Source of the DNA: Chiloscyllium plagiosum
Taxonomy: Eukaryota
Direction of reading: 5' to 3'
NCBI RefSeq assembly: GCF_004010195.1
Contig: NC_057755.1
Location: 11,843,443 to 11,863,442, forward strand
Length of the DNA stretch: 20,000 bases
The number at the start of each line of letters is the position of its first letter. Positions within the stretch are counted from its first letter, which is position 1. Both the position numbers and the translations under genes were made by a program. This document shows, one piece after another, positions 1-20,000 of this stretch. The notes below the pieces were generated by a model, which searched no databases, was not told where the DNA came from, and was given only the letters and a program-made list of their open reading frames with translations.

Positions 1-590
1 AAAGATCCTTTGGGGTCTTGGACAGAGGTGAGGGGGGAGGTGGGAGTTCAGGTTTTCCACCTCTTGCAGTGGCGAGTGAAGGTGCTGGGTGTGGAGGGTG
101 AGTTAGGCATGGACCAAACGAGAGAGTCACGAATGGAATGGTTTCTGTGGAATGCAAATAGGGGTGGGGAGGGAAATATAGCTCTGCTGGTGGGGTCTAA
201 TTGTAGTTGGTGGAAATGGCGGAGGATAATGTGCTGTATACTGAGATTGGAGAATCAACGTTTCGGGCATAAGCCCTTCTTTGGGCTTATGACCGAAACG
301 TCGATTCTCCTGTTCCTTGGATGCTGCCTGACCTGCTGCGCTTTTCCAGCAACACATTTTCAGCTCTGATCTCCAGCATCTGCAGTCCTCACTTTCTCCT
401 GTATATGGAGATTAGTGGGTTGGAAGCTGAAGACCAGGGGGATTCTATCCATGTGATTAGAGGAGTGTTGTCCAAGAGCAGAGGTGCAGGAAGTGGAGGG
501 TGTTGTTGATCACATGGGTGGGGAAATTGCAGTCTGTGAAATAGGATGCACTGAAGGGCATTGTTAATCATGTTGAAGGGGAAATTCCTT
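1..590 (-). mobile_element. Penelope-like retroelement fragment (region between RT and GIY-YIG), interrupted by a mini pLTR insertion at 249-399
   Basis: 1-240 aligns by eye with 16971-17210 of the PLE that carries YIDD and GIY-YIG motifs (e.g. GGGTGGGGAGGGAAATATA..CTG.TGGTGGGGTC). Boundaries approximate. Confidence 0.75.
249..399 (+). mobile_element. Short PLE pseudo-LTR insertion with 28-bp inverted 5' arm
   Basis: Arms 249-276 and 283-310 are near-perfect inverted repeats. The element ends in the shared CTCCAGCATCTGCAGTCCTCACTTTCTCC terminus and is flanked by an imperfect duplication CTGTATA(CT/TG)GAGATT. Confidence 0.8.
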
Positions 591-595
591 GAAAT

Positions 596-745
596 AGAAT
601 CTCCTCCACTTCCTGCACCTCCGCCCTTGAACCCCACCCCACCAACAAAAAGGATAGAAACGCCCCCACCCCGGCCATCACCTTCCATCCCAATAATCTC
701 AGCATACAGCGCATTATCCTCTGCCATTTTGGTTGCAGTCTTCCT
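596..745 (+). mobile_element. PLE fragment in opposite orientation to its neighbours
   Basis: CTCCTCCACTTC..GCACC..GCCCTTGAACCCCACCCC...CATACAGCGCATTATCCTC is the reverse complement of the PLE segment seen at ~220-500 and 17190-17310. Confidence 0.65.
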
Positions 746-774
746 AAGGGGAAAATGAGGTATTTTCTTCCAGC

Positions 775-2095
775 TTGTGCTGGAAGGTATGTTTTTGGGC
801 CCTTGGATACAGAGAAGGTAAATGGGCAGGTGTTACACCTTTGGTAGTTGCAGGGGAAGGTGCCATGGGACTGTGGGTGGGTGTTGGGAATGAAGGAAGA
901 TTGGACCAAGGTGTCATGAAGGAAACTTGGCCCTGCAGAAGGCGCACAAGGAAGAGGAGGGGAATGTGTCTGCTGGTGACATCTTGCTGGAGGTGGTAGA
1001 AATGGCAGCTGGATGTGGATGTTGGTGGGATAATAGGTAAGGACAAGGGGAACTCTATCGCTGTTGCAGGAGGGAAGAGAAGGGGTGAGGACAGATGTGC
1101 GGCAGATGAATCAGACCCATTGACGGCCCAGTTGCCAACGGTGCTGTGAAATGCACGGTTGAGGAAGAAGGTAGACATTCGGAGGCTCTCGTTGAGGTTT
1201 GCCTCATCAAAACGTATGTGATGAAGGAATTGGGAGAATGGAATGGAGTTCTTAACAGAAACAGGGTGCGAGGATGTATTTTCCAGGTAGCTGTGGAAGT
1301 CGGGTTTATAGTGGACATTGGTGGCAGAAATGGAAATAGATGTCAAGGAAGGGAAGGGAGGAGTCAAAGATAGACCAGGTGAAAGTGAGGGTGGGGTGGA
1401 AATTGGAAGCAAAATCGATTAACTTTCCCAATCCCAGCCAAGAGAGGGAAGCAGCATTTATGATATCGATATATTAAAGAAAGAGTTGTGGGTGGGCTCC
1501 AGAATAGGACTGGAACAAGGAATGTTCCATGTAACCCATGAAGAGACAGGCATAACTGAGGCCAATGGCCACCCCTCTGACCTGGAGAAAATAAGTTAAA
1601 AGAGAAGTTGAGGGTGAGGCCAAGCTCAGCCAAGTGGAAGAGAGTGATGGTGAGTGGGGATGATTCAGACCTTTGTTTCAGGAAGAAGTGGAGAGCCCTG
1701 AGACTATCCTGGTGGAGGATGGATGTGTAAAGGGATTGCACATCGCTGGTAAAGAGGAGGCGGCTGAAGCCTGAAAACTGGAAACTCCAAAACTGGCGTA
1801 AAGTGTCAGAGGAATTACGGGTGTACGTTGGCAGGGACTGGACCACTGGAGAAAAGATTCAATTAAGGTAGAAAGAGATGGGTTCTGTGGGGTAGGAGCA
1901 GACTGAAACAATGGGCAGTCCTGTTTTTGGATTTTTGGAAGGAGGTAGAAGCAATCTGTGGGGCTGGTGGACGATCAGTTTGGAGGCAGTGGGGGAGAGG
2001 TCACCGGATGAAATGAGCCCTGTGACCGTGGTTGACATAATGGCCTCATGTCATCGTGGGCTCATGATCCAGAGGTATCTGTACAACAGCACCAG
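775..2095 (-). mobile_element. Decayed Penelope-like element, reverse transcriptase region
   Basis: Minus-strand translations contain PLE RT motifs LFTSDVQSLYTSILH, LAELGLTLN and the thumb-like TNVHYKP..HSYL..TSSHP...KNSIPFSQFL. Multiple frameshifts. Confidence 0.85.
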
Positions 2096-2107
2096 CCTTA
2101 TTCCAAC

Positions 2108-2385
2108 TATAGAGTCCGAGATGTACAGAATGGATATAGACACTTCTATCCAACTCGTCCAGGCTGACCAGATATTCTAAATTAATCTAGTCCCATTTGC
2201 CTGCACTTGGTTTGTATCCCTCCAAACCCTTCCTAACCATATACCTATCCAGCTACCTTTTAAATGTAATTGTACCAGCTCCACCATTGCCTCCGACATC
2301 TCTATCATACACCCTGTGAAAAAGTTGCCTTTAGGTCCCTTTTAAATCTTTCCCCTCTCGCCCAAAACCTATCCCCTCTCATCCT
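2108..2385 (-). mobile_element. CR1/HER1-type LINE 3' end fragment
   Basis: Reverse complement closely resembles the 3' end of the CR1 at 8080-8372 (TAGAGTC..AGATGTACAG, AATCTAGTCCCA, CCCTCCAAACCCTTCCTA). Confidence 0.8.
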
Positions 2386-2856
2386 GGACTTGTGGAGCAT
2401 CTTCGTGTGGCTTCAACTTGCCACAAGGCTGAGAGCGCAAATGATGCGATGTTGTCTCACTTCCTTTCATAATGTGTACTGTCTCATTAACTCGGTCAGA
2501 CTGACATCCTTCCACTGAACAATAGGGAGATGGTGCCTGCAATTCTGTGGGAAATCGGACAGTACCTCTGCAGAGCAGACATGAAGGGTCGGATGATCTA
2601 ACCATGCTTCTCTTCCTCATGGATTGGCAGAATCTAATTGTTCTGATTTCGAAATGTTCCAGCGACAGATGCCAAGCGGGATCGAATTGCCATCAGCCTT
2701 TACAAAAATTATGGGACAACGTTTGATACACAGATAGCAAAACAATTCTATTCTGATGGATAAGCACTAAACACAATTTGGAACAATCTGTGCTATCGCT
2801 TCCAATGGTCCACCCCTTTCCTCAACCCTAGTATCTGACCAATTTCCACAATATAA

Positions 2857-2993
2857 TAAAACAAAGAACTGCGGGTGCTGAAGATCTGATTGAAAACAGA
2901 AAACGTTTGGAGAAACTCAGTAATTGGGTCTGGTAGCATCTGTGGAGAGGGAAACGGTTAACGTTTCAAATCCAGTGACTTTTTTTCGAACTG
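2857..2993 (-). mobile_element. Degenerate pseudo-LTR of a second PLE subfamily
   Basis: Same layout as the other pLTRs (GAACTGCGGGTGCTG..GATC..GGAGAAACTCAG..GTCTGGTAGCATCTGTGGAGAG..AACGTTTC..hairpin). Contains a decayed hammerhead-like core. Confidence 0.6.
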
Positions 2994-3159
2994 ATCACCT
3001 GGTGCCCACTTTCCACATTGTAATCATTCACCGTTATTAACTAGTTGTGTATTTGCACAAAGCCAACTTTACCTTCTAAAGTTGTAACAATCAGGAATAC
3101 ACTGACTTTTGAATTGTTTCTGGAACTACCTCAGAATCTCCAATGAATTAGGCACAAGC

Positions 3160-3288
3160 CTGCCCGCGCGGTTACTATGGTTCCGGGTGATTGACAGCGA
3201 CTGGTCGCGCCCTCACGGTTGCTAGGCAGCAGCGTTCAGGCCGGAGTCCGGAGAAGGGAACGGGATCGTGGAGACGAGAAGATCCACC
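3160..3288 (+). promoter_or_regulatory. CpG-rich promoter/5' UTR with RFX X-box-like motifs (3171-3184, 3218-3230) and a PBX-PKNOX/MEIS decamer (3188-3197)
   Basis: Sharp rise in CpG density from ~3160. GTTGCTAGGCAGC is 1 mismatch from the X-box GTTGCTAGGCAAC. GTTACTATGGTTCC has a good left half-site. TGATTGACAG is an exact PBX-PKNOX decamer. Confidence 0.7.
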
Positions 3289-3580
3289 ATGTCGGTGCAG
3301 TTGGCCCGGAGCTCACTGGCAATGGTTCTGGGGGTTCGGGAAGCGGCCTCGAGGCCGGACCTGAGCGGGCAGCAGTTGCTGGCACAACTGAAGGCGGAGA
3401 ACCGGCGCAATGTGTGGGATGGGCGGCTGGTTCAGGCCGTATCCGGCCTCCTGCTCCTCGGCTGTCTGGATAGCTCGGTCTTGCTGCTAGGTGGCAGCGC
3501 CTCACACCTACAGGTCCTGAGGGAAGCTTGGAGCCGGAGAGCACTGAGGGCCCCCCGCGGATTCCGTATCAAAGCCATGG
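3289..3580 (+). CDS. First coding exon of an unidentified host gene (97 codons + 1 nt: MSVQLARSSL...REAWSRRALRAPRGFRIKAM)
   Basis: CCACCATG Kozak context, open GC/CpG-rich non-repetitive frame, and a consensus donor G|GTGAGT at 3580/3581 (phase 1). Confidence 0.8.
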
Positions 3581-3650
3581 GTGAGTGTCTGGAGAGAGAG
3601 AGACTTGGGTACAGCGAGAAGTACAATACTGAGAGGGGGTGTTGGGGGGA

Positions 3651-4150
3651 NNNNNNNNNNNNNNNNNNNNNNNNNNNNNNNNNNNNNNNNNNNNNNNNNN
3701 NNNNNNNNNNNNNNNNNNNNNNNNNNNNNNNNNNNNNNNNNNNNNNNNNNNNNNNNNNNNNNNNNNNNNNNNNNNNNNNNNNNNNNNNNNNNNNNNNNNN
3801 NNNNNNNNNNNNNNNNNNNNNNNNNNNNNNNNNNNNNNNNNNNNNNNNNNNNNNNNNNNNNNNNNNNNNNNNNNNNNNNNNNNNNNNNNNNNNNNNNNNN
3901 NNNNNNNNNNNNNNNNNNNNNNNNNNNNNNNNNNNNNNNNNNNNNNNNNNNNNNNNNNNNNNNNNNNNNNNNNNNNNNNNNNNNNNNNNNNNNNNNNNNN
4001 NNNNNNNNNNNNNNNNNNNNNNNNNNNNNNNNNNNNNNNNNNNNNNNNNNNNNNNNNNNNNNNNNNNNNNNNNNNNNNNNNNNNNNNNNNNNNNNNNNNN
4101 NNNNNNNNNNNNNNNNNNNNNNNNNNNNNNNNNNNNNNNNNNNNNNNNNN
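3651..4150. other. Assembly gap (500 N)
   Basis: Run of exactly 500 N, probably a fixed-size scaffold spacer. True length unknown. Confidence 0.99.
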
Positions 4151-4799
4151 TTTCACTATAGAACATTGTTTGTAGGAATGTCTCTCAGGGACTACAATTT
4201 ACAAAAACCTTTTCATCTGACTGCCTGCTCCTGATCTTTGGTGAGGAAACTAAGCTAGGTGGACCATTTTGCTAATGCAACACTCCAGGCTTGTTTTGTC
4301 ATTGAAAGTTTTCTTGTCCTTATCCTTTCCTACTGAGTGCAATGACTCTTGCTGGCATACAGTTCCACGACCACAAGCCATCAGGGATGTCATCGATGTG
4401 GCTGGTCTTTGTGAGAGAATGAGACCACTGTCAGCAATGAGATCGAGCAGTAACAGTAATGAGGCAGTGCTGGATTGCAGAATTACAGTGAACTCTGTTA
4501 GAAGAGTTGAGTAAGATTTTTCTCTCAAATTCTCCAACTTCCTTTATTTCTGTCACCAGAGTTTGTGAAAAGTCATCTCTTCTCAGCTGAAGTTACTGTT
4601 CAATTGTATCTGATGGGACTCTTTGCCTCAACTTCATTCTCTTTGGAGGGATTTCCTTGTCTTTGTCTTCCATCCCACCCAACTCCATATTTACTGAATC
4701 AGTTGAAATTTACCTTACATGCAAGATGATCTCACTGCCTCCCCCACCCGAAGCACATCTTCTCCCTCATCTCCCTGCTCTCTGTTCAGTCAACCATCA

Positions 4800-5008
4800 G
4801 TTGAAACTTTATTGCTGGAACAGCACAGCAGGTCAGGCAGCATCCAGGGAACAGGAGATTCGACGTTTCGGGCACAGGCCCTTCTGAAGAAGGGCCTGTG
4901 CCCGAAACGTCGAATGTCCTGTTCCCTGGATGCTGCCTGACCTGCTGTGCTGTTCCAGCAATAAAGTTTCAACTTTGATCTCCAGCATCTGCAGACCTCA
5001 CTTTCTCC
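4800..5008 (+). mobile_element. Mini PLE insertion: inverted pLTR pair (palindrome 4800-4973) plus 35-nt tail, 14-bp TSD
   Basis: 86-bp arms, 2-nt spacer, one mismatch. TCAGTCAACCATCA is duplicated at 4786-4799 and 5009-5022. Confidence 0.9.
4884..4914 (+). ncRNA. Minimal type I hammerhead ribozyme motif (helix I weakened by the inversion junction)
   Basis: CTGAAGA-A-GGGC-CTGT-GCCC-GAAAC-GTC: conserved CUGANGA and GAAA boxes, 4-bp helix II, GUC triplet. Confidence 0.7.
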
Positions 5009-5444
5009 TCAGTCAACCATCATACCTGTTCAGTATGAAGTCAAGCAACTGTTTGCTTTTCACCACCTGGTATCATTATTCAGGTCCCAACACCTGTAGC
5101 AGATAAGGTAAGAAGTCATGTACAAATAGAACATAAAACAGTATAGCACAGGAGCAGGCCCTTTGGCCCACCATATCTGCACCAGCCATGATGCAATCTA
5201 AATTAATCCAATCTGCTGGCACATGGTCCATATCCCTGTATTCTCTGTCTGCTCATGTATCTATCGAAATGCCTCTTAAACATTGTTATAGTATCTGTGT
5301 CTACCACCTCCCCAGGCATTGTATTCCAGTCACCTACTATCCCTGTGTGAAAAAAAAAACTCCTTGCACGTCTCATCTTAAACCTCATCTTAAACCTGTG
5401 CTTCCTGGTATTTGACATTACTACCTTGGAAAAGAGACTCCAAT

Positions 5445-5570
5445 GGAGAAAGTGAGGTCTGCAGATGCTGGAGATCAAAGTTGAAACTTTATTGCTGGAA
5501 CAGCACAGCAGGTCAGGCAGCATCCAGGGAACAGGAGATTCGACGTTTCGGGCACAGGCCCTTCTTCAGG
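5445..5570 (-). mobile_element. Solo mini PLE pLTR insertion with 13-bp TSD
   Basis: AAGAGACTCCAAT is duplicated at 5432-5444 and 5571-5583. Sequence is essentially identical to the 4800-5008 element. Confidence 0.9.
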
Positions 5571-5572
5571 AA
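5539..5572 (-). ncRNA. Minimal type I hammerhead ribozyme motif (best preserved copy)
   Basis: Minus strand reads TTC-CTGAAGA-A-GGGC-CTGT-GCCC-GAAAC-GTC-GAA: helix I TTC/GAA, helix II GGGC/GCCC, and self-complementary ACGT in place of helix III. Confidence 0.75.
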
Positions 5573-6847
5573 GAGACTCCAATATCCACCTTATCTGTGC
5601 CTCTCAATTTTATATACTTATACCTGTTCACCCCACAGCCTCTGACAGCCTTGCAAAAACAATCCAAGTTTGTCCAAACTTTCCTTGTAGCTAATACACT
5701 GTCATCCAGGCAGCATCCTGGTAAAGTTCTTCTGCATCCTCTCCAAAGTCTCCACATTCTACCCATAATCTGTCATCCAGAATTTCACACGGTACTCCAA
5801 ATGTAGCCTAACCAAAAGCCCTATTCGGTTACAACATGACTTTACCAACTTGTATACTCAATGCCCCGATTGATAAAGGCAGCATGCCATATGTTTTCTT
5901 TACCACCTTATACACATTTGTTTCCATTTTCAAGGAACTAGGGCCTTGGACCAGAATGCAGCCATTTACTGTATATCTTCCTCTTGCATTTGACCTCCCA
6001 AAATGCCTCACCTCTAACTTGTCCCAAATACACTTCACCTGCCATTTCCCTGCACAACTTTCCAGTACATCCTTTGATATCCTTCCTCACTACCACAAAT
6101 TCACCAATTTTCATGTCATCTGCAAACTTATTAATCACAACATGTACATTTCATCCAAATCATTTATGTATATTAGAAATGACAGAGGTCCCAGCACTTG
6201 TGTGCAGTTCTTTTTGTTTTTTAAATAACGTTGGTGATTGTCCAATATTCTGGGACTTCACCAGTGGTTGAAGAAGATATAAAACCTCTGCCTAGGCCCC
6301 AGCAATCTCCTCCATTGCTGCTCCGGTATCTTGGGATAGATCCCATTAGGCTTTGGGGACTTGCTTGTTTTTCAAGACACCAACACCAAGTCCTCCTTAA
6401 TGTAAGCATGACTTAGATTGTCGACAAACTTATCTGGGATTTTCCTAATCTGCAAAATTCTATACCCTGTTCGCAGTGTACCCTTTATGTTGGAGGAACT
6501 ATATCTCAATTAAGTTAATTTCCCAGATGCACTCCAATGTCCAGCGAGACATGAATTCAAAACAGTAAGGGCCGTAACTGCGTAGGTTCTCTCTCTCTCT
6601 CTCTCCTGCACTGTCCTCACCATGTGCTTCCTTTGTCTGTTCTTCTCCCTTTTAAGACTGCTGTTGTTTTGACTTTTTTTTTCCAAAGTTCCAAAACAAT
6701 ACAACAGCATATGAAACAGTAATTACTGCTCCTGGAATTCGAGGAAATCACCTCCAGCACCTAAAATATCTCAAAAAAAGGAGCAGCAGTTACAGCCAGA
6801 AATTTTTCCCGTCCTCTATCTTGGATTACCCAGAATCCTCATCATCT

Positions 6848-8372
6848 TAGAGAAGTGATTGCTGGGACTCTTGCTGAGATATTTGTATCATCGATAGTCA
6901 CAGGTGAGGTGCCGGAAGACTGGAGATTGGCAAACGTTCCACTGTTTAAGAAGGGTGGTAAGGACAAGCCAGGAAATTATAGACCAGTGAGCCTGACCTC
7001 AGTGGTGGGCAAGTTGTTGGAGGGAATCCTGAGGGACAGGATGTACATGTATTTGGAAAGGCAAGGACTGATTAGGGATCATCAACATGACTTTGTGAGT
7101 GGGAAATCATGTCTCACAAACTTGATTGAGTTTTTTGAAGGAGTAACAAAGACGATTGATGAGGGAAGAGCAGTAGATGTGATCTATATGGACTTCAGTA
7201 AGGCGTTCAACAAGGTTCCCCATGGTAGACTGATTAGCAAGGTTAGATCTCATGGAATACGGGGAGAACTAGCCATTTGGATACAGAACTTGCTCAAAGG
7301 TAGAAGACAGAGGGTGGTGGTGGAGGGTTGTTTTTCAGACTGGAGGCCTGTGACCAGTGACCAGTGGAGTACCACAAGGATCGGTCCTGGGTCCTCTACT
7401 TTTTGTCATTTACATAAATGATTATATGGGAGAATAAGAGGTACAGATAGCAAGTTTTCAGATGACACCAAAATTGGAGGTGTAGTGGACAGTGAAGTGG
7501 GTTACCTCAGATTACAACAGGATCTTGACTAGATGGGCCAATGGGCTGAGAAGTGGCAGATGGAGTTTAATTCAGATAAACATGAGGTGCTGCATTTTGG
7601 GAAAGCAAATCTTAGCAGGACTTATACACTTAATGGTAAGGTCCTAGGGAGTGTTGCTGAACAAAGAGACCTTGGAGTGCAGGGTCATAGCTCCTTGAAA
7701 GTGGAGTCGCAGGTAGATAGGATAGTGAAGAAGGTGTTTGATATGCTTTCCTTTATTGGTCAGAATATTGAGTACAGGAGTTGGGAGGTCATGTTGCAGC
7801 TGTACAGGACATTGATTAGGCCACTGTTGGAATATTGAATGCAATTCTGGTCTCCTTCCTATTGGAAAGATGTTGTGAAACTTGAAAGGGTTCAGAAAAG
7901 ATTTATAAGGATGTTGCCAGGGTTGGAGGATTTGAGCTATAAGGAGAGGTTGAAAAGGCTGGGGCTGTTTTCCCTGGAGCGTCAGAGGCTGAGGGGTGAC
8001 CGTTTAGAGGTTTACAAAATTATGAGGGGCATGGATAGGGTAAATCGGCAAAGTCTTTTCCCTGGGGTTGGTGAATCCAGAACTAGAGGGCATAGGTTTA
8101 GGGTTAGAGGGGAAAGATATAAAGGAGACCTACGGGGCAATTTTTCCACACAGAGGGTGGTACGGGTATGGAATGAGCTGCCAGAGGACGTGGTGGAGGC
8201 TGGTATAATTGCAACATTAAAGAGGCATTTGGATGGGTATATGAATAGGAAGGGTTTGGAGGGATATGGACCAGTGTTGGCAGGTGGGACTAGATTGGGT
8301 TGGGATATCTGGTCGGCATGGACGGGTTGGACCGAAGGGTCTGTTTCCATGCTGTACGTCTCTATGACTCTA
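6848..8372 (+). mobile_element. 5'-truncated CR1/HER1-type LINE, RT through 3' tail, inactivated
   Basis: VPEDWRLANVPLFKKG..PGNYRPVSLTSVVGK, YMDFSKAF, KFSDD, RPLLEY*, WNELP. A 7-bp tandem duplication (GTGACCA, 7350-7363) shifts the frame, there is a stop at 7836-7838, and the tail is CTCTATGACTCTA. Confidence 0.95.
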
Positions 8373-8536
8373 AGTGAACAAGGTACATGAAAATTTCACA
8401 AATTGGAGTGTATTTATCATTTTCAGGTTGCAGCTCTGAAACAGCACTATAAAATTGCTTTCCATCTGTAAAATTGTAAGATCTTCATGTTTTGATGTAT
8501 CATATTAAAGATCAGTAGAGTAAATCTGCCAGGGTA

Positions 8537-9122
8537 AACATAAACATAGAAACATAGAAGATAGGAGCAAGAGCAGGCCATCAGCCCTTTGAGCCTGCTC
8601 TACCATTCGTCACCATTATGGTTGATCATCTAACTCAGTACCTTAATTCTGCTTTCTTCCTATAACCTTTGATCCCATTCACCCTAAATCCTAAATCTCG
8701 CTGCCTCTTGATTACATTTAATATTTTGACATCAACTACTTCCAATGGTAATGAATTTCACAGGTTCACCACTCTTTGGGTGAAGAAATATCTCCTTGTC
8801 TCCATCCTAAATGGTCCACTCTGAATCCTCAGATTGTAATGCCTGTTCTGTACACACCCACTAGCAGAAACATCCTTCCTGCATCTACCCTGTCTAGTCC
8901 CGTTAGTATTTTGTAAGTCTCTATGAGATCCTCCCTCACTCGTCTGAACTCCAGCAAAAATAATCCTAACCTAGTCAATCTCTCCTCATGTGTCAGTCCC
9001 ACCATCCCTGGAATCAACATGGTAAACCTTTGCACTCACTCGAGAGCAAGATCATCCTTCCTTAGCAAAGGAAACCAAAACTGCACACAATATTCTTGGT
9101 GTGGATCACCAAGGCCCTGTAT
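8537..9122 (-). mobile_element. CR1-clade LINE 3' fragment
   Basis: AAACATAG-type tail repeats at ~8537-8560. Minus translation QRFTMLIPGMVGLTHEERLTRLGLFLLEFRRVREDLIETYKIL. Confidence 0.9.
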
Positions 9123-9879
9123 ATGGTTAGTATCAGAATGTTTATAGAACAGAAGGAGGTTATTCAGAAAAAGCAGTCTGTTTATTCAACCAAACTAGAT
9201 CCCTCCCTTACATTGAGCACAGAACCAACAAAACTTACAAGTATGTATTTTGAATTAAACTTATAACGGTAGTTAGATTTTACTTCTATTCCCAACCACT
9301 GAAGAACGGAATCTCCATAAAACTAACAAAATCAAAATGAATCTGCTTTGTGTTTATCACTGTTTCATTGTTTGATATGTGGTTCTTGGTGTTTGATTGC
9401 CAACCTGTCTGTTCAATATTACTGTATTCCCTCTATTCTCAGTAAATCTGAAAAATGTTGCAAATCCAATAAAGTACTAACATGTACATGATCAAAGATT
9501 AGGCCCACGCAGTGGGTAACGAATGCCAAGTTATTTGTCTACCTCATTTTTTTGACAAACCCTGCAGGAGGCTCCTCTCTCTTTTAAAAACATCTTCCTT
9601 TCTCCAATCACTTATGGATCATGTGTGTTGTGCAATATGTCATTTACTGTGTTATATTGTGAATCAACTCTGTAAGAACTCTGGTCTAATCACCTTAAAG
9701 GTAGATCATTCAAAGCCTTTGGAAATAAATGTGAGATACATTATATCAGCTTATAACAGGTTTGACACAAAAGATTTCAAACATAAAGAAAAAATATTGG
9801 ATTGTCCAAAACAGTAAACACCATCTAAACCCAACTCTTACAACACCCCTGTTGAAACTGAGGACACTACAGCTGGCTG

Positions 9880-10975
9880 ATACAAGTTTGTTTAGTTTGC
9901 AAGATTAAAGTACATAGGATAAAATGTAATGTACTGAATTCAGGAGTGGCTAACAGGCATAAAACAGAATTAAAAGCTTCATTCTTGCATTGGCAGGATG
10001 TAACCAATGAGGTAACACAAGAATCAATTCTTGGACTCCACCTGTTCACAATATACCATATATCAATGATTTGGAGATGGGACCAAATGTAATTTTTCCA
10101 CTTCCATTGAAATTGCAAAGCTAAGTAGAAATGTGTTTTGTGAGGAAGATGTCAAGTGATTTCAGGAGGATTTAGACTGGCTTAGTGATTTGGATGAGAT
10201 CATGACTGTTGGAATGTAATGTGAAAAAAAATGAGGTTATCCACTTTGTGCTGAATATTTCTTATGTGGTAAAAGTTAAAAAGTGTAAATGTACAAAGGG
10301 ACCTCAACATTCTTGTCAGTAAGTTACTGAAGGCTGACATGGAGGCACACTAAGTAATCAGAAAGGCTAATATGTTGGACTTTATCACCAGAGGATTTGA
10401 GTATAGAAGTAGCAAAGTCTTGCTTTAATTGTATAGAACCTTGGATAAAATGCACCTGGAGTACTCTGTACAGTTTTGGTCTCTGAAGATTATTATTGCC
10501 ATAGAGGGAGGACCCAAAGTTTCACCAGACTTGTTCCTGGAATGATAGAACTGTACTATGAAGAAACATTGGCCAAACTGGGTCCAGACAATTCTCTAGA
10601 GTTTTGAAGAATGAGAATGAAACTTTGAAAATATTTTAAGCAATAGACTATGTCGATACAATTGAGATGATCCCCTTGTTGGGGAGTCTATAACCAGGGG
10701 ACACAATTTAAGAATAAGTGGAGTGCCACTTAGCTCTGAGATTAAGATAATTTTCTTTTTACTCAGGTTTGTGAAGCTTTTGAATTCTGTAACTCAAAGA
10801 CTGTGCAAGCTTCGTCTTTGAGAATGTTTAAAGCTTTAAAAGATTTCTAAGTAGCAATGCCATTATAGTTTGAGAATAGTGTGAGAAAAAGCCTTTGATT
10901 AGGATGATGAGATGTGATTGTATTGAATAGCAGGGCAGACCTGACAAGCTGAACAGACACTTTATGCTTTTATGT
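9880..10975 (+). mobile_element. Old, highly decayed CR1-clade LINE (RT C-terminal half to 3' end)
   Basis: Remnants of CR1 motifs: GGATAAAA..AGTGGCTAACAGGCA, GAGGTTATCCACTTTG, CACCTGGAGTACTCTGTACAGTTTTGGTCTC, ACCAGGGGACACAATTTAAGAATAAG. Boundaries approximate. Confidence 0.75.
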
Positions 10976-11627
10976 ACCCAAATAAGCATTCTCTTATATT
11001 GATTAGTCCCCATATGCCAAGAAGATGTTTGACTTCTTCAGGGATGCTTTGAGGACATTACTAAAGTGTCTCCTTAGAGGTGGCTTTAAGTGATTAGCGC
11101 CTGATGCTTAGCTCTGCCTCGCCGACTGCAAAAATGAATAAAGTTGATTTGGGGCTTGAAAATGAATTAGAGAATTACAGTGTCAGGCTCCTGAAGGGTT
11201 AGCATTGCTTTCTTGTTTTTACTCAAAAAAGCCCCGCGACAGTGAAAACATTGTTTTCCTGTCTGCTAGATAGTAGCAAATGCTCTTCCTTTTGCTCAAA
11301 GATTTAAAAAAAACTTCCCTGTTTCACCCAATGTGCACCTCTGCATCAGGTACACCTGGGATTTCAAAATGAAAATTCATTTCCAGAGTTCAGAAATGGA
11401 TTTTTTCCTCAACAACTTCGTTGTATAAAATCTGCTTGCATGGCTATTCTTCTCAGAAAAATTTGTTTGAATGGTTTTGAGAAATAAAATTTGAATCCTT
11501 TGATTACAATCAAATGCCTTTCTTCGTACTATATTCAATTCAGAATGGTGTTAATCAAGTCAAGCAGGACCCAATGTCTTAACAAGATAAAACAGCATCA
11601 TGAAGTGGTACACTTCTGTGACATTAA

Positions 11628-12185
11628 AGAAGAACACAAGATAAGCAGGAGTCGGCAATCCAACCCATCAAGTCTGCCATTTAATACATTCATCTCTGAT
11701 CTCTCTGTCTCACCTCCACTTTCCTGCCTGCTCCCCATAGCACTTTAATCCATTTATAATTCAAAGTCTGTTTATCTTTACCTTAAATCTTTTCAGACTC
11801 CCAGCACTCTGTGATAGTGATTTCCACAGATTCGCAACACTTCAAAAGAAGTAATTCTTCCTCTTCTCTGTTTTAAACCTGCCACTCTGTACCCTAAAAT
11901 TATGAGCTCTTATTCTAGGTTGCCCCACTTTGTCAATCCCTGTTCGCACCTTCTACACCTCAAGCAGATCTTCTTTAATCCTTCTAAACTCTAGCAAGTA
12001 TCGGCCTAAACTGCCCGATCTCTCTTCATAAGACAAATCTTTCATCTCTGGAATTAGACAAATAAACCTTCCCTGAACTGCCTGAATGCAATTACATCCT
12101 TCCTCAAGAAAGGAGGCACTATACACAGTACTCCAGATGCAGTATCACCCCAATGCCTAATACAATCGCAACAGCACTTCCCTGT
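11628..12185 (-). mobile_element. CR1-clade LINE 3' fragment
   Basis: Tail AGAAGAACACAAGATAAGCAGGAGTCGGC. Layout parallels 8537-9122 and ends near ACACAGTACTCCAGATG (HLEYCV). Confidence 0.8.
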
Positions 12186-12229
12186 ATCGTAGGACACAGA
12201 ATTTATAGTAAGAGATATCATTTTTTTGG

Positions 12230-12670
12230 TAAAATCTTAAGTTATCTCGGGAATGTGACTTGAAAGAAGTTCTGGAGTTTACATATTAATGAATCAAAAT
12301 GCACTCATTTTATGTGACTAAGACTTAACAGCAATCTTGATTTATTCAATATATTGCATCAGTTGTATAACAGTTTGATCTTTTACTGTAAATTGTGTGT
12401 CCTCTGATTCTGAGGAGAAAGTGAGGACTGCAGATGCTGGAGATCGGAGCTTAAAAATGTGTTGCTGGAAAAGCGCAGCAGGTCAGGCAGCATCAAAGGA
12501 GAAGGAGAATTGACGTTTCGGGCATAAGCCATTCTTCCAGCAACACATTTTTAAGCTCTGTCCTCTGATTCTGCCCCACTAGCTACCTGATAAAGGAGCA
12601 GGTTCCAAAAGTTTGTATTTCCAAATACAATCATCAGACTATAACCTAGTGGTTTGTGATTTTTAACTTT
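12230..12670 (+). mobile_element. 3' end of a third PLE-like family, interrupted at 12413-12558, with a degenerate hammerhead at ~12587-12612
   Basis: CTGATAA-A-GGAGC-AG-GTTCC-AAAA matches the CUGAUGA/helix II/GAAA layout with two G>A changes. Family assignment is inference. Confidence 0.55.
12413..12558 (-). mobile_element. Mini PLE pLTR insertion with 24-bp inverted arm and 15-bp TSD
   Basis: TGTCCTCTGATTCTG is duplicated at 12398-12412 and 12559-12573. 12535-12558 is the inverted copy of 12447-12470. Confidence 0.9.
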
Positions 12671-13420: not shown

Positions 13421-16335
13421 AGAAGACAGAACAATACAGAACAGGCCCTTCAGCCCTCGATGTTGCGTCGACCTGTGAACTATTCTCAACTCGTCCCCCT
13501 ACACTATCCCAAAATCATCCATATGCTTATCTAAGGATCGTTTAAATCTCCCTAATGTGGCTGAGTTGACTACCTTAGCAGGTCAGGCATTCCACGCCCA
13601 TACGACTCTCTGCGTAAAGAACTTGCCTCTGACATCTGTCTTAAATCTATCACCCCTCAATTTGTAGTTATGCCCTCTCGTACAAGCTGACATCATCATC
13701 CTAGGAAAACGTCTTTCTCTGTCTACCTATCTAATCCTCCGATCATCTTGTATGTCTTTATCAAATCCCCCCTTAGCCTTCTTCTTTCCAATGAGAACAG
13801 ACCCAAGTCTCTCAGCCTTTCCTCTTAAGACCTTCCCTCCAGACCAGACAACATCCTGGTAAATCTCCTCTGCACCTTTTCCAATGCTTCCATATCCTTT
13901 CTGTAAGGGGGCGACCAGAACTGTACACAATATTCCAAGTGTGGCCGCACCCATCTACACTACCAAGAATCTTTCCATTGACCAAATACTCTGCCATCCT
14001 GTTATTCTTCCCAAAGTGCATCATCTCACATTTGGCTACATTGAACTCCATTTGCCATCTCTCAGCCCAATTCTGCAATTTATCCAAGTCCCCCTGCAAC
14101 CTGTAACATTCTTCCAAACTGTCCATTACTCCACCAACTTTAGGGTCGTCTGCAAATTTACTAATCCATCCATCTAAGCCTGTGCCTAAGTCATTTATAA
14201 AAATGACCAATAGCAGTGTTCCCACAACAGATCCTTGTGACACACCACTAGTAACTGGACTCCAGACTGAATATTTTCCATCAACCACCACTCGCTGCTG
14301 TCTTTCAGAAAGCCAGTTTCTAAACCCAACTGCTAAATCGCCCTCCATTCCATGCCTCTGCATTTTCTCCATCGGCCTACCATGTGGAACCTTATCAAAG
14401 GCTTTACTGAAGTCCAAGTATACCACGTCAACTGCCCTACCCTCCTCTACATGTTTGGTCACCTTCTCAAAAAACTCAGTGAGGTTTGTGAGACACGACC
14501 TGCCCGTGACGAAACCATGTTGACTATCTGAAATCAAATTGTTGCTTGCTAGATGATTATAAATCTTATCTCTCATAATCCTTTCCAAAACCTTTCCTAC
14601 AACAGAAGTAAGGCTCACTGGTCTATAATGACCTGGGTCATCTCTGCTGCCCTTCTTGAACAAGGGCACAACATTTGCAATCCTCCAGTCGTCAGGTACT
14701 AAACGTGTAGACAATGATGACTCAAATATCAAAGCCAAACGCTCCGCTATCTCCTCCCTAAGCTTCCCAGAGAATCCTCGGATAAATCCCATCCAGCCCA
14801 GGGGATATGCCTACTTTCACTCCTTCTAGAATTGATAACACCTGTTTGTAACTAACCTTGATCCTTTCTAGTCTAATATCTCATACCTCATCCTTTTCCT
14901 CTACAATATTCTCCTTGCCCTGAATGAACACCGATGAGAAATGTTCATTTAGCACCTCTCTGATCTCCACAGGGTCCACACTGAACTTCCCACTTCTGTC
15001 TTTGACTGGCCCTATTCCTTCTCTCGTCACCCTTTTACTCTTCACATATGTATAGAAAGCTATAGGGTTCTCCTTTATTCTGTTGGCTAAAGACTGCTCG
15101 TGTCCTCTCTTTGCTCTTCTTAAATTTCTCTTTAAATACTTCCTAGCTGATCTGTAATTCTCCATCGCTTCATCTGAACCATCTTGCCTCATCAACATGT
15201 AAGTCTCCCTCTTCTGCTTAACAAGAGATGTACTTTCTGTAGTAAACCACGGTTCCCTTACCTTATCACTTCCCCCCGCCTGATAGGGACGTACCTATCA
15301 AGGACACGCAATATCTGTTCCTTAAACCAACTCCACATTTCGATTGTCTGCATCTCCTGCATTTTGCTACCCCATTCTATCCATCCTAATACTTGCTTAA
15401 TCGCATCATAATTGCCCTTGCCTCATCGATAACTCTTGACCTGTGGCATGTACCTATCCCTTTCCATCACTAAACTAAACGTAACTGGATTATGGTCAAT
15501 CTCTCCAAAGTGCTCACCTACAACCAAATCAAACACTTGGCCTGGTTCATTACCAAGCATCAGATCCAGTGTGGCCTCCCCTCTTGTCAGCCCTTCGACA
15601 TACTGTGTCAGGAAACCCTCCTGTACACATTTGACAAAAACAGATCCATTTGACGTACTAGAGCTGTAACATTTCCAATCAATGTTGGGGAAGTTAAAGC
15701 CCCCCATAATGACCACCCAGTTCCTTTCACTCCTACCCAGAATAATGTTGCTAATCCTCTCTTCCACCTCCCTGGAACTCTGCAGAGGCCTATAAATAAA
15801 CTCCAAAAAGTGTGACCTCTCCTGTTTCTAACCTCAGCCCACACTACTTCAGTAGACGAGTCCTCATCAAAATTTCTGCCCCACCGTTATACTATCCTTG
15901 ACGAACAAGTCCACGCCTCCCCTTTTTTACTGCCTTGCCTGTTTTCAATGAAAGATCTAAACCCTGGAACCTGCAACATCCATTCCTCACCCTGCTCTAT
16001 CCATGTCCCAGGTCTCTGTCCATGCTGCAAGCTCACCTACCTTATTTCGGATACTTCTGGCATTGAAGTAGACACACTTCAAACCACTTCGCTGTCTGCC
16101 AGTACATTCCTGTGACCCTGAAATCCTGTCTCTGTCCTTCCTACTCTCATCCTCCTGTGCACTGCAGCTACACCTCCGGTTCCCATCCTCCTGCTGAACT
16201 AGTTTAAACCCACCCGTATAGCACCAGCAAATTTCCCACCAAGGATATTAGTATCCCTCTGGTTCAAGTGAAGACCGTCCTGATTGAGCCCCAATTATCC
16301 AAAAACCTGAAACCCTCCCTCCTGCACCATCCTTG
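13420..16335 (-). mobile_element. Long CR1-clade LINE remnant: APE endonuclease + RT + 3' tail, frameshifted and internally deleted
   Basis: APE motifs IYRP, MGGFNFPNIDW, LDL, EHFGEIDHN (15423-15806). RT ORF 13812-14792 with YLDFSKAFDKV, SQGSVVG, KFADD. A deletion near 13949 joins GSVD to the VRPHLEY segment out of frame. Confidence 0.95.
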
Positions 16336-16362: not shown

Positions 16363-18065
16363 GGAGAAATTGAGGACTGCAAATGCTGTAGATTGGATTT
16401 GAGAGTGTAGTGCTGGAATAGCACGGTAGGTCAGGCAGCATCCGAGGAGCAGGAGAATCGACGTTTCGGGCATAAGCCTTTCATTAGGAATGAGGCTTGC
16501 GGATCAGGGCTGAGAGATAAATGGGATGGGGGTGGGGTTGTGAGGAGCTAGCTGGAAAAGCAATAGATGGATGAAGGCGAGGTGATAGGTCAGAGGGGGC
16601 AGTGATGGACGGGTCCGGAGGGCAGTGCCGAGTTGAAGGGTTGGGAGTGCGATAATATGGGGGGAGGGGAAATGAGGAAGCTGTTGAAATCCACATTTAT
16701 CCTGTGTGGTTGCAAGGTCCCAAGGCGAAACATAAGGTGTTTCTCCAGGTAAGGGTTTGGCGGTGGAGGAGGCCCAGGCCCTGCATGTCCTTGACTGAGT
16801 GGGAGGGGGAGTTGAAGTGTTCAGCCACGGATCGGTGGGGTTGGTTGTTCTCTGAAACAATCCGCAAGAAAGCATCTTGTCTCCCTGATATAGAGGCGAC
16901 CATACTGGGTGCAACGAATGCAGTAGATGACATTGGTAGAGGTGCAGGTGAATGTCTGATGGATGTGGAAGGATCCCTTTGAGCTTTGGAAGGAGGTGAG
17001 GGGAAAAGTGTGGGCGGATGTTTCACACTTCCTGCGATGGCAGAGAAAGATGCCAGGAATGGGGTGTGGACTGGTGGGGGGTGTGGATCTGACGAGGGAG
17101 TCGCAGAGGGAAGTCTTTTGGAATACTGATAGGGATGGGGAGGGAAATATATCTCTGGTGGTGGGGTCTGTTTGGAGGCGGCAGAAGTGGCGGAGGATGT
17201 GTTGTATGTGGAGGTTGGTGGGGTGGAAGGTGAGGAGTGGGGGCGGGGGTCCGTCCTTGTTGCGTCAGGAGGGGTGGGGTTCAAGGGCAATGGTGCGTGA
17301 AGTGGAGGAGATGCACTGGAGGGCATCATCAACTACATGGGAAGGGAAGTTGCGATCTTGGAAGAAGGAGGCCATCTGGGACTTTGAGGTGGGATAGCTC
17401 ATCCTGGGAACAGATGCGATGGAGGTGGAGGAATTAGGAATAAGGAATGGTGTTTTTACACGAGGTAGGGTGGGAGGAGGTGTAGTCTAAGTAGCTGTGG
17501 GAGTCTGTGGGCATGTAGTATATGTCTGTGTTTAGTCAGTTACCAGAGACAGTAATGGAGAGGTCGAGGAAAGGGAGGGAGGTTGTCGAGATGGTCCAGG
17601 TGAATTTGAGGTCGGGGTGGAAGGTTGTTGAACTGTTCAACCTCCTCATGGAAGCACGAGGTGGCGCTGATAAAGTCATCGATGTAGCGGAAGAACAGAA
17701 GGGGGTTGGTACCACTGTAACTGCAGAAGATGACAAACAGGCAGGTATAGCTGGGTCCCATGCGCGTGTCTATAGCTATCCCTTTGGTTTGGAGGAAATG
17801 GGAGGATTGGAAGAAGAGGTTTTTGAGGGTGTCAGTGGAAGGGACGGCGTGAGAGGAAGAAACAGAGTGCTTGGAGACCGTCGTCGTGGCAGATCAATGT
17901 GTACAGGGACTGGATGTCAATAGTGAAGATGGTGTGTTGTGGGCCGGAGAGACAAAAATCTTGGAGAAGGTGAAGGACGTGTGGTGTCACAAATGTAAGT
18001 GGGGAGTTCCTGGACTAAGGAGGAACAGGACGTTGTTGAGGTAGGAAGAGATGAGTGCGGTGAGT
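16363..18065 (-). mobile_element. 5'-truncated Penelope-like element: partial RT, GIY-YIG endonuclease, 3' UTR and pLTR with degenerate hammerhead
   Basis: MGPSYTCLF..FFRYIDDF (RT). FTCTSTNVIYCIRC..LYI(R)ET and VAEHFNSPSHS (GIY-YIG) at ~16790-16960. The pLTR at 16363-16495 is homologous to the mini insertions. Confidence 0.9.
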
Positions 18066-19355: not shown

Positions 19356-19655
19356 TAGATTAGATTAGATTCCCTTCGGCCCAACTAGTCCACACCAACC
19401 CTCCGAAGAGCAACCCACCCAGATCTATTTCCCTCTGACTAATGCACCTAACACTATGGGCAATTTAGCATGGCCAATTCACCTGACCTGCACATCTTTG
19501 GATTGTGGGAGGAAACCAGAGCACCCGGAGGAAGCCCACGCAGACACGGGGAGAATGTACAAACTCCACACAGACGGTTGTGCGAGGCTGGAATTGAACC
19601 TGGGACCCTGGTGCTGTGAGGCAGCATTGCTGACCACTGAGCCACCGTGCCGCCC
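19356..19655 (-). mobile_element. HE1-type tRNA-derived V-SINE
   Basis: Head GGGCGGCACGGTGGCTCAGTGG (A box) and GGTTCAATTCC (B box), V-domain TGTGTGGAGTTTG.ACATTCTCCCCGTGTCTGCGTGGG.TTCCTCCGGGTGCTC, CR1-like tail GGGCCGAAGGG and AATCT repeats. Confidence 0.92.
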
Positions 19656-19658
19656 TAA

Positions 19659-20000
19659 GTGGGGACTGCAGATGCTGGAGAAGTCAGAATCGATAAAGTG
19701 TGGTGCAGGAAAAAGCTCAGTAGGTCGAGCAGCATCTGAGGAACAAAATAATTGATTTTTTGGGCATAACCCTTCCTCAGGACTGGGGAGGGGGGAAGGT
19801 GGTGGTGCTGGGAGAATGTAGGTGGGATGGCAATAGGTGGGTGAAGGTCAGATGTGCTTGTGATAGGCCGGTGGGAAGGAAGATGGACAGGTAGGTCAAG
19901 TGAAGAGGGTGGAGCCAAGTCACAGGGTTGGATCTAGGATGGGGTGGGGGGAGGGTAGATTAGGGAACTGGTGAGTTCAAAGCTGGGACCGTGTGGTTGT
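19659..20000 (-). mobile_element. PLE pLTR and 3' UTR, continues past the window end
   Basis: GGGGACTGCAGATGCTGGAG...GCAGCATCTGAGGAAC...GGGCATAACCCTTCCTCAGG followed by G-rich sequence like 16500-16700. Confidence 0.8.

Follow-up and report, generated by a model that had tools for sequence, protein, structure and literature searches.

The 20,000-nucleotide stretch of Chiloscyllium plagiosum DNA analysed here (hereafter the window; contig NC_057755.1, positions 11,843,443 to 11,863,442 of the forward strand) carries four short insertions of a Penelope-like element (PLE), a long copy of the parent element and further PLE pieces. Positions within the element are numbered in the element sense, with 0 at C3 of the CUGAnGA hammerhead box and the GUC cut at +28.

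Short PLE insertions and their parent in the window

The four short insertions lie where an earlier note on this DNA had placed them and share the 3′ end CACTTTCTCC. Insertion 1 (249–399, plus strand) is composed of an inverted arm at 249–281 (+3 to +35) joined to a main arm at 283–399 (+8 to +124), and landed in an older piece from this PLE family that lies on the opposite strand. Insertion 2 (4800–5008, plus strand) is a head-to-head pair, in which the inverted arm at 4800–4883 (about +6 to +89) ends at a site near +90 and the main arm occupies 4884–5008 (0 to +124). Insertion 3 (5445–5570, minus strand) is a single arm spanning -1 to +124. Insertion 4 (12413–12558, minus strand) contains a main arm at 12413–12537 (+2 to +125) and an inverted arm at 12535–12558 (+69 to +92), which falls short of the hammerhead. 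The target-site duplication (TSD) of insertion 1 (left 235–248, right 400–413, plus strand) agrees, when read by eye, in 12 of its 14 nt, with only 7 perfect nt found by script, whereas insertions 2, 3 and 4 are flanked by perfect TSDs of 14 nt (4786–4799/5009–5022), 13 nt (5432–5444/5571–5583) and 15 nt (12398–12412/12559–12573), respectively. This agrees with the earlier description of 13–15 bp duplications, the first of them imperfect. The main arms start at +8 (283), 0 (4884), -1 (5570) and +2 (12537); the claim that all insertions stop or invert within about 10 nt of the box, and not at the GUC cut, therefore holds for the main arms but fails for the inverted arm of insertion 4. The copies at 4800 and 5445 represent one young sequence type and are 99% alike over 125 nt.

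The long parent copy (16363–18060, minus strand) is 5′-truncated and decayed, and comprises part of the reverse transcriptase (RT), a Cys linker, the GIY-YIG domain, a pyrimidine-rich 3′ untranslated region (UTR) and a pseudo-long terminal repeat (pLTR). As had been noted, it continues upstream from the hammerhead into GIY-YIG and RT sequence. It contains an Initiator-like TCATTCC at 16487–16493 (minus strand), whose A at 16491 is position -4, the predicted transcription start and the genome-wide stop position. A putative motif at the TATA-box position, TTTATCT, lies at 16515–16521 (minus strand), 30 nt upstream of the predicted start. In addition, an older decayed copy of the same family (RT and endonuclease (EN) region) occupies 1–1990 on the minus strand, with insertion 1 sitting within it in the opposite orientation, and a paralogous site near 17205 holds a single copy of the insertion 1 target. 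A sixth, more distant hammerhead-bearing PLE end (19655–20000, minus strand) runs upstream toward the window edge. Its 3′ end is directly adjoined by a repeat with a tRNA-like head (19356–19654, minus strand), which we take to be probably a shark HE1-type short interspersed nuclear element (SINE).

The element and its hammerhead

L231 and L232, two decayed but nearly complete copies of about 3.7 kb that possess direct pLTRs, match RVT_1 with E values of 1.8e-7 and 4e-4, respectively. Translations of related copies contain ADKG, RYIDD and VIYC..C..C.LLYIGET, corresponding to an RT with DKG followed by a C-terminal GIY-YIG domain; a Pfam search of the decayed pieces returned no GIY-YIG match. 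The CX2-5CxxC linker between the RT and the EN is intact in 3 of 11 GIY-YIG frames (C-HRRK-C-KT-C type) and is decayed or out of frame in the others. Such a linker is used as a criterion for the Neptune and Nematis clades (PMC8557442), and by this feature the element is an endonuclease-bearing (EN+) PLE of probable Neptune (or Nematis) type. The direct pLTRs, the optional inverted pLTR and the 30–40-nt tail of PLEs are found as well (L231 and L232; 3′ ends bimodal at about +89/+125). In full-length copies the sequence extends beyond +125 to a conserved ATG near +165, a likely start codon, and an open reading frame (ORF) start inside the hammerhead, considered earlier, was dropped once this ATG was found. 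Since the sequence runs on past it, the common 3′ end is an internal site, as in the anole Poseidon element, and the stretch copied before the likely start codon would be 5′ UTR.

The hammerhead has the make-up of a minimal ribozyme, with the CUGAnGA and GAAA core, stem II and a palindromic helix III, and its core is intact in 44 of the 105 arms that cover it. Within insertion 2 the minimal core, as read from the sequence, occupies 4884–4911 (plus strand) and consists of CUGAAGA, a bulged A, stem II (GGGC/GCCC) and GAAA-CG-UC, with the cut predicted after 4911; this core is without the 5′ strand of stem I. An Rfam search at the four copies returned no hammerhead match, only hairpin-type chance matches, and no tRNA, 7SL or 5S head, no promoter scan having been made. 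Both the kind of element and the kind of ribozyme are already known. In 8 of 10 pairs in which both arms could be compared (L031–L060), the main arm has G at +32 (window position 4916) and the inverted arm has C, a difference that the selection of the query may explain.

Genome-wide 5′ breakpoints peak at the hammerhead edge

The 5′ breakpoints were mapped in a blind sample of 28 blocks of 50 kb, taken at round coordinates from 28 contigs (1.4 Mb, including 1.36 Mb of called sequence). The called sequence contains 227 PLE arms, which extrapolates to roughly 0.6 million arms genome-wide. For the map, 206 of the 227 arms were kept, 21 having been removed because identity was below 75%, the 3′ end fell short of +60 or the junction contained N, and each arm was aligned to the best of 40 natural long copies. 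A preceding map against a single reference was biased and inflated the peak, since the sequence types differ upstream, and was replaced by the recount with 40 parents.

Ends at -7 to -1 account for 54 of the 206 arms, and ends at +26 to +30, around the cut site, for 5. On the 3′ side, the stop rate per nucleotide is 0.7% at +31 to +43, 0.6% at +26 to +30 (cut), 0.9% at +11 to +25 and 2.3% at +1 to +10. At the edge it rises to 4.3% (-2 to 0), 13.2% (-5 to -3) and 8.2% (-7 to -6), falls to 3.1% at -10 to -8, and further upstream amounts to 1.0% (-29 to -11), 0.45% (-100 to -39) and 0.57% (-239 to -101). The DNA breakpoints thus show no peak at the cut site. The earlier note had regarded random 5′ truncation as unlikely and had named a smooth genome-wide spread as the outcome that would count against a cluster; random truncation indeed cannot explain the sharp peak found here, which is also far from a smooth spread.

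A bump of 5′ ends at +44 to +47 was discarded as partly artefactual, about 8 of its arms coming from a distant family with no parent among the references, and for a possible second edge at -38 to -30 the 7 events (2% per nt) are too few for a firm call. In four single copies (B206:33136, B71:22065, B226:28408 and B216:15690), GTGA stands directly before CATTCC, which may reflect a sequence type without a parent in the set or a target preference.

An extra G and an Initiator-like context at the edge

The edge coincides with the A of the Initiator-like TCATTCC, and of 52 long arms, all sequence types included, 39 have YYANWYY at -6 to 0. In 38 of the 52 there is a TTAT(C/T)T motif, which in 34 arms lies 30 to 32 nt upstream of the Initiator-like A. 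An Initiator (Inr) consensus with a TATA position upstream is a core promoter layout; the Initiator-like A and the motif about 31 nt upstream show this layout and form a putative core promoter. Comparable arrangements are on record for related elements: a TATA/Inr pair has been noted in a rotifer pLTR (PMC3846280), and the promoter of D. virilis Penelope sits in its pLTR (PMC2377424).

Whole-genome exact, alignment-free counts of one sequence type reveal which base precedes the edge. Before ATTCC (-5), 15,396 copies have the parental C, and the other bases amount to 3,444 (G), 1,634 (A) and 646 (T) copies; before TTCC (-4), the parental A is found in 21,120 copies, which is the total of these four counts, G in 818 and C or T in 5,328. 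G thus makes up 60% of the non-parental bases at -5 (n = 5,724) versus 13% at -4, in blocks of 41% G+C, and its excess is confined to -5. A second sequence group, counted for these two bases, has 648 G and 469 A. In 30 of the 3,444 G copies that were read individually, the sequence before the G differs between loci and mixed sub-type variants occur; by eye, the G at about 14 of these 30 junctions is supplied by neither the target duplication nor the partner arm. Among 30 A loci read likewise, several are palindromic GGAATTCC joints, which inflate the A count. Of the 27,266 copies of the exact pattern, 10,669 retain the parental sequence to -8.

Arms end at two fixed 3′ sites and pair head to head

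The 3′ ends cluster at about +125 and about +89/+90. When arms with N at a junction are kept, giving 213 arms, 98 form 49 head-to-head pairs, and in 46 of these pairs one arm ends at +125 and the other at +90. TSDs flank 35 of the 49 pairs and measure 13–17 nt in 32 of the 35. Single arms (101) use either site, with 11 TSD-flanked copies ending at +125 and 11 at +90. The further 5′ reach in the 46 pairs belongs to the +90 arm in 23, to the +125 arm in 14 and to neither in 9. Because either arm can be the longer one, fold-back of a single cDNA is hard to fit, whereas twin priming from two nicks fits. One and two RNA templates are indistinguishable, the within-pair distance having a median of 5% versus about 6% to the ten nearest other arms.

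Some loci have a more complex build. In L087 (near 6300) and L264 (near 1340–1390), a piece runs past +125 to near +190 and is joined to a second piece from about -46 or -5, and L131 contains near 7780 a piece that starts near +83 and holds the tail and the ORF start; all three have the look of template jumps. In L144 (1088–1306), five tandem 44-nt units derive from the pLTR stretch of about +47 to +90, forming a minisatellite born of the element.

Other features of the window

Decayed long interspersed nuclear element (LINE) fragments with RT and endonuclease-like frames lie at 6765–8390 (plus strand) and 13812–15886 (minus strand), and are presumably CR1-like. At 3289–3581 (plus strand), a GC-rich open frame runs from MSVQLARSS to a GT donor-like site just before an N gap and has the appearance of a host gene's first coding exon; neither Pfam nor Atlas provided a name for it.

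Discussion

Our analysis suggests, with a probability of roughly 0.7, that the short insertions are stubs of about 130 bases of a Neptune-type PLE, formed when the RT primes within the 5′ UTR of a capped, uncleaved sense mRNA and runs off its 5′ end. Most likely, the hammerhead edge coincides with the transcription start, and the predicted RNA 5′ end precedes the core by 4 nt. For full-length copies of L1 and SVA, a 5′ G that has no template has been attributed to copying of the m7G cap (PMC3287187), and since the extra G at the edge is this published mark of a copied mRNA cap, it points to run-off at the cap. In such a pathway, RNA polymerase II would start at the A of TCATTCC, and the endonuclease would nick both strands about 14 nt apart, with one nick priming at +125 and the other at +90. 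Each cDNA would reach the cap and often copy it as C; the cDNA ends would then be trimmed and joined by microhomology, either to each other, giving a head-to-head pair, or to the target, giving a single arm. Trimming and microhomology joining would also account for the shoulder of ends from -3 to +20. Long copies may arise by template jumps or when a read-through RNA is primed on its 3′ pLTR. Run-off at the cap from two start sites would explain the back-to-back PLE ends.

Several observations weigh against this interpretation. None of the four copies in the window ends exactly at -4, and the edge is wider than one base, being spread over -7 to -3 with a shoulder to +20. The exact counts still drop from 15,396 at -5 to 10,669 at -8, and 5,328 copies already diverge at -4. 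About 40% of the arms that reach the edge run on upstream, so that a second route is needed. About half of the 30 G junctions could draw their G from target or partner-arm microhomology; the excess in the second sequence group is weaker (1.4-fold over A), and the G counts cover two sequence groups, to neither of which the young type seen at 4800 and 5445 belongs. The contigs of run X15 speak for the interpretation in that G, AG or TG stands between the inverted arms and position -4, but they possibly come from the source sample of the genome and are hence not independent. Later asymmetric deletion at the palindrome centre could blur the argument from arm lengths. Furthermore, the one usable RNA run (poly-A single-cell) yielded both-strand reads from embedded copies and no start site was called, although its loose ends before the match include -4 and -6.

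The earlier note had offered two origins for the edge, both of which appear unlikely to us. A folded hammerhead, or a protein bound to it, could block or switch an RT that copies a longer RNA: the 5′ strand of stem I (ATTC, -4 to -1) matches the edge in position, the stop rate is already raised over +10 to -2 (2–4% per nt), and folding of the hammerhead of the anole element is protein-assisted (PMC11167929). However, the RT enters the fold from its 3′ side, where only 0.6–0.9% of arms stop per nucleotide (+11 to +43), and the peak appears only after the whole fold has been copied. Such a block should place stops within the fold or 3′ of it, leaves the Initiator-like context unexplained and gives no reason for a G to be added at a single position (60% versus 13%), about 40% of the arms pass the point, and hammerhead mutants left the insertion product unchanged in vitro (PMC11167929); a block by the fold is therefore less likely than run-off at the cap. 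The other proposed origin is a non-autonomous SINE- or retrozyme-like unit; taken here as about 130 nt long, possibly G-initial, transcribed from its own masters and mobilised in trans, it has equally little probability. In its favour, copies are extremely numerous (227 arms in 1.36 Mb), rare head-to-tail joints of 127–135 nt occur in X15 and X4 contigs, retrozymes have been proposed as pLTR derivatives (bioRxiv 10.64898/2026.07.22.740005), and solo pLTRs that keep the upstream promoter could yield an identical RNA start and supply some of the templates. Yet a short-only lineage, arrays or ends at the cut would be expected of it, whereas for each of the sequence types checked the short and long copies agree in their diagnostic bases. 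Edge and G reappear in groups with a different parental base, and the G copies mix sub-type variants; no array of a ~130-nt unit is found in 1.4 Mb, and the cut-site peak expected from a cleaved or circular monomer is absent. With long parents for every type checked and so many copies parental to -8, a separate unit is not needed.

The inverted arm might also arise by fold-back or self-priming of the first cDNA, or on an antisense template, instead of by twin priming, a possibility that we consider very unlikely. It is the published interpretation for rotifer Penelopes (PMC3846280), the junctions are often palindromic or microhomologous, and paired arms agree at 514 of 591 variable sites versus 58% expected at random. 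Against it, a cDNA primed at +90 cannot template the +125 arm, yet the +90 arm reaches further 5′ in half of the pairs (23 of 46); single arms with their own TSDs end at +90, and the cap-like G argues for a sense template. That the edge is a splice junction or an alignment artefact is largely refuted. The end of the D. virilis Penelope intron maps to the 5′ end of helix I (PMC4209133) and the upstream region is pyrimidine-rich, but parents have TC or TT, not AG, before ATTC, and the 30 loci read share no common exon before the G. The single-reference pass did inflate the peak, which nevertheless persists in the 40-parent pass and in the alignment-free counts.

Our comparison with known systems reveals both shared and distinct features. 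The Neptune-clade PLEs described by Arkhipova et al. 2013 (PMC3846280) and Craig et al. 2021 (PMC8557442) likewise combine an RT with a C-terminal GIY-YIG domain, a Cys linker, direct pLTRs and TSDs, and possess an inverted pLTR in head-to-head position, which falls short of the main pLTR by about 36 nt, and TATA- and Inr-like motifs in a pLTR. By comparison, the copies studied here are mostly stubs of about 130 nt whose 5′ edge is sharp and bears an extra G. In the parts of those papers available to us, inversions are ascribed to self-priming, and neither run-off at a capped start nor fixed +125/+90 pairing is described; whether the template is sense or antisense is left undecided in the paper of 2013 (PMC3846280). 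The anole Poseidon element PAc (Frangieh et al. 2024, PMC11167929) has two internal RT start sites that bound a tail about 120 nt past the hammerhead, matching the two 3′ sites here, and it resembles our element, as interpreted here, in both-strand extension, dispensable cleavage, use of uncleaved RNA in vitro and the lack of ends at the cut site. It differs in clade and in its ORF, which starts at stem II, whereas the ATG here lies near +165. That paper, as far as it was accessible, holds no census of 5′ junctions and leaves the later insertion steps unvalidated (PMC11167929).

Minimal hammerheads described from metazoan PLEs (Cervera and De la Pena 2014, PMC4209133) agree with ours in the core, the bulged base before stem II, the palindromic helix III and the short helix I, and in their many solo motifs across the genome; the model built on them involves cleavage and a circular RNA template, whereas no breakpoint peak occurs at the cut here. 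Non-LTR retrozymes (Li, Clavereau and Pollet 2026, bioRxiv 10.64898/2026.07.22.740005) are likewise short, non-coding, hammerhead-bearing, pLTR-derived and very numerous, but by definition form tandem arrays in which every unit has its own hammerhead, in contrast to the single or head-to-head arms with individual TSDs seen here. Tandem organisation was found in none of the four window copies and in no array in 1.4 Mb, only as rare head-to-tail joints in contigs. Nor do the short copies appear to form the distinct lineage of a SINE, long parents with matching diagnostic bases existing for every type checked. In L1 twin priming, two cDNAs start from two nicks and are then joined through microhomology. 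The arms described here, if made as proposed, resemble L1 in this two-cDNA joining and in the untemplated G at full-length 5′ ends (PMC3287187). They differ in that the L1 primers act at the poly-A tail and at a variable internal site, whereas both sites are fixed near the RNA 5′ end here. Neither cap run-off nor twin priming in Penelope elements was found in the literature searched, which left subscription journals and Repbase mostly uncovered. What the present analysis adds is an edge resolved to the base, a cap-like G and the constant pairing of a +125 with a +90 arm.

These results bear on how PLEs, the closest mobile relatives of telomerase, form pLTRs, the optional tail and inverted ends that lie head to head, and on what their hammerhead does. 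The present genome supplies natural copies in very large numbers, with predictions made to the base, namely an RNA start at -4, a cap-derived G, one arm per start site and a cut site without a role. For annotators, it indicates that a sharply bounded hammerhead repeat of about 130 nt can be an abortive product rather than a SINE or a retrozyme. More tentatively, and with considerable doubt on our side, the stubs, in their hundreds of thousands, might record the transposition intermediate of Penelope itself: an RT–endonuclease dimer making cuts in both strands, spaced about 14 nt apart, with two cDNAs started at fixed +125 and +90 sites on capped, uncleaved sense RNA and running off at the cap by default. 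In that case, the pLTRs would be rebuilt only via read-through or template jumps, and the hammerhead, as the first structure of the mRNA, might decap and silence the message or pair two RNAs through its palindromic helix III, rather than excise the template.

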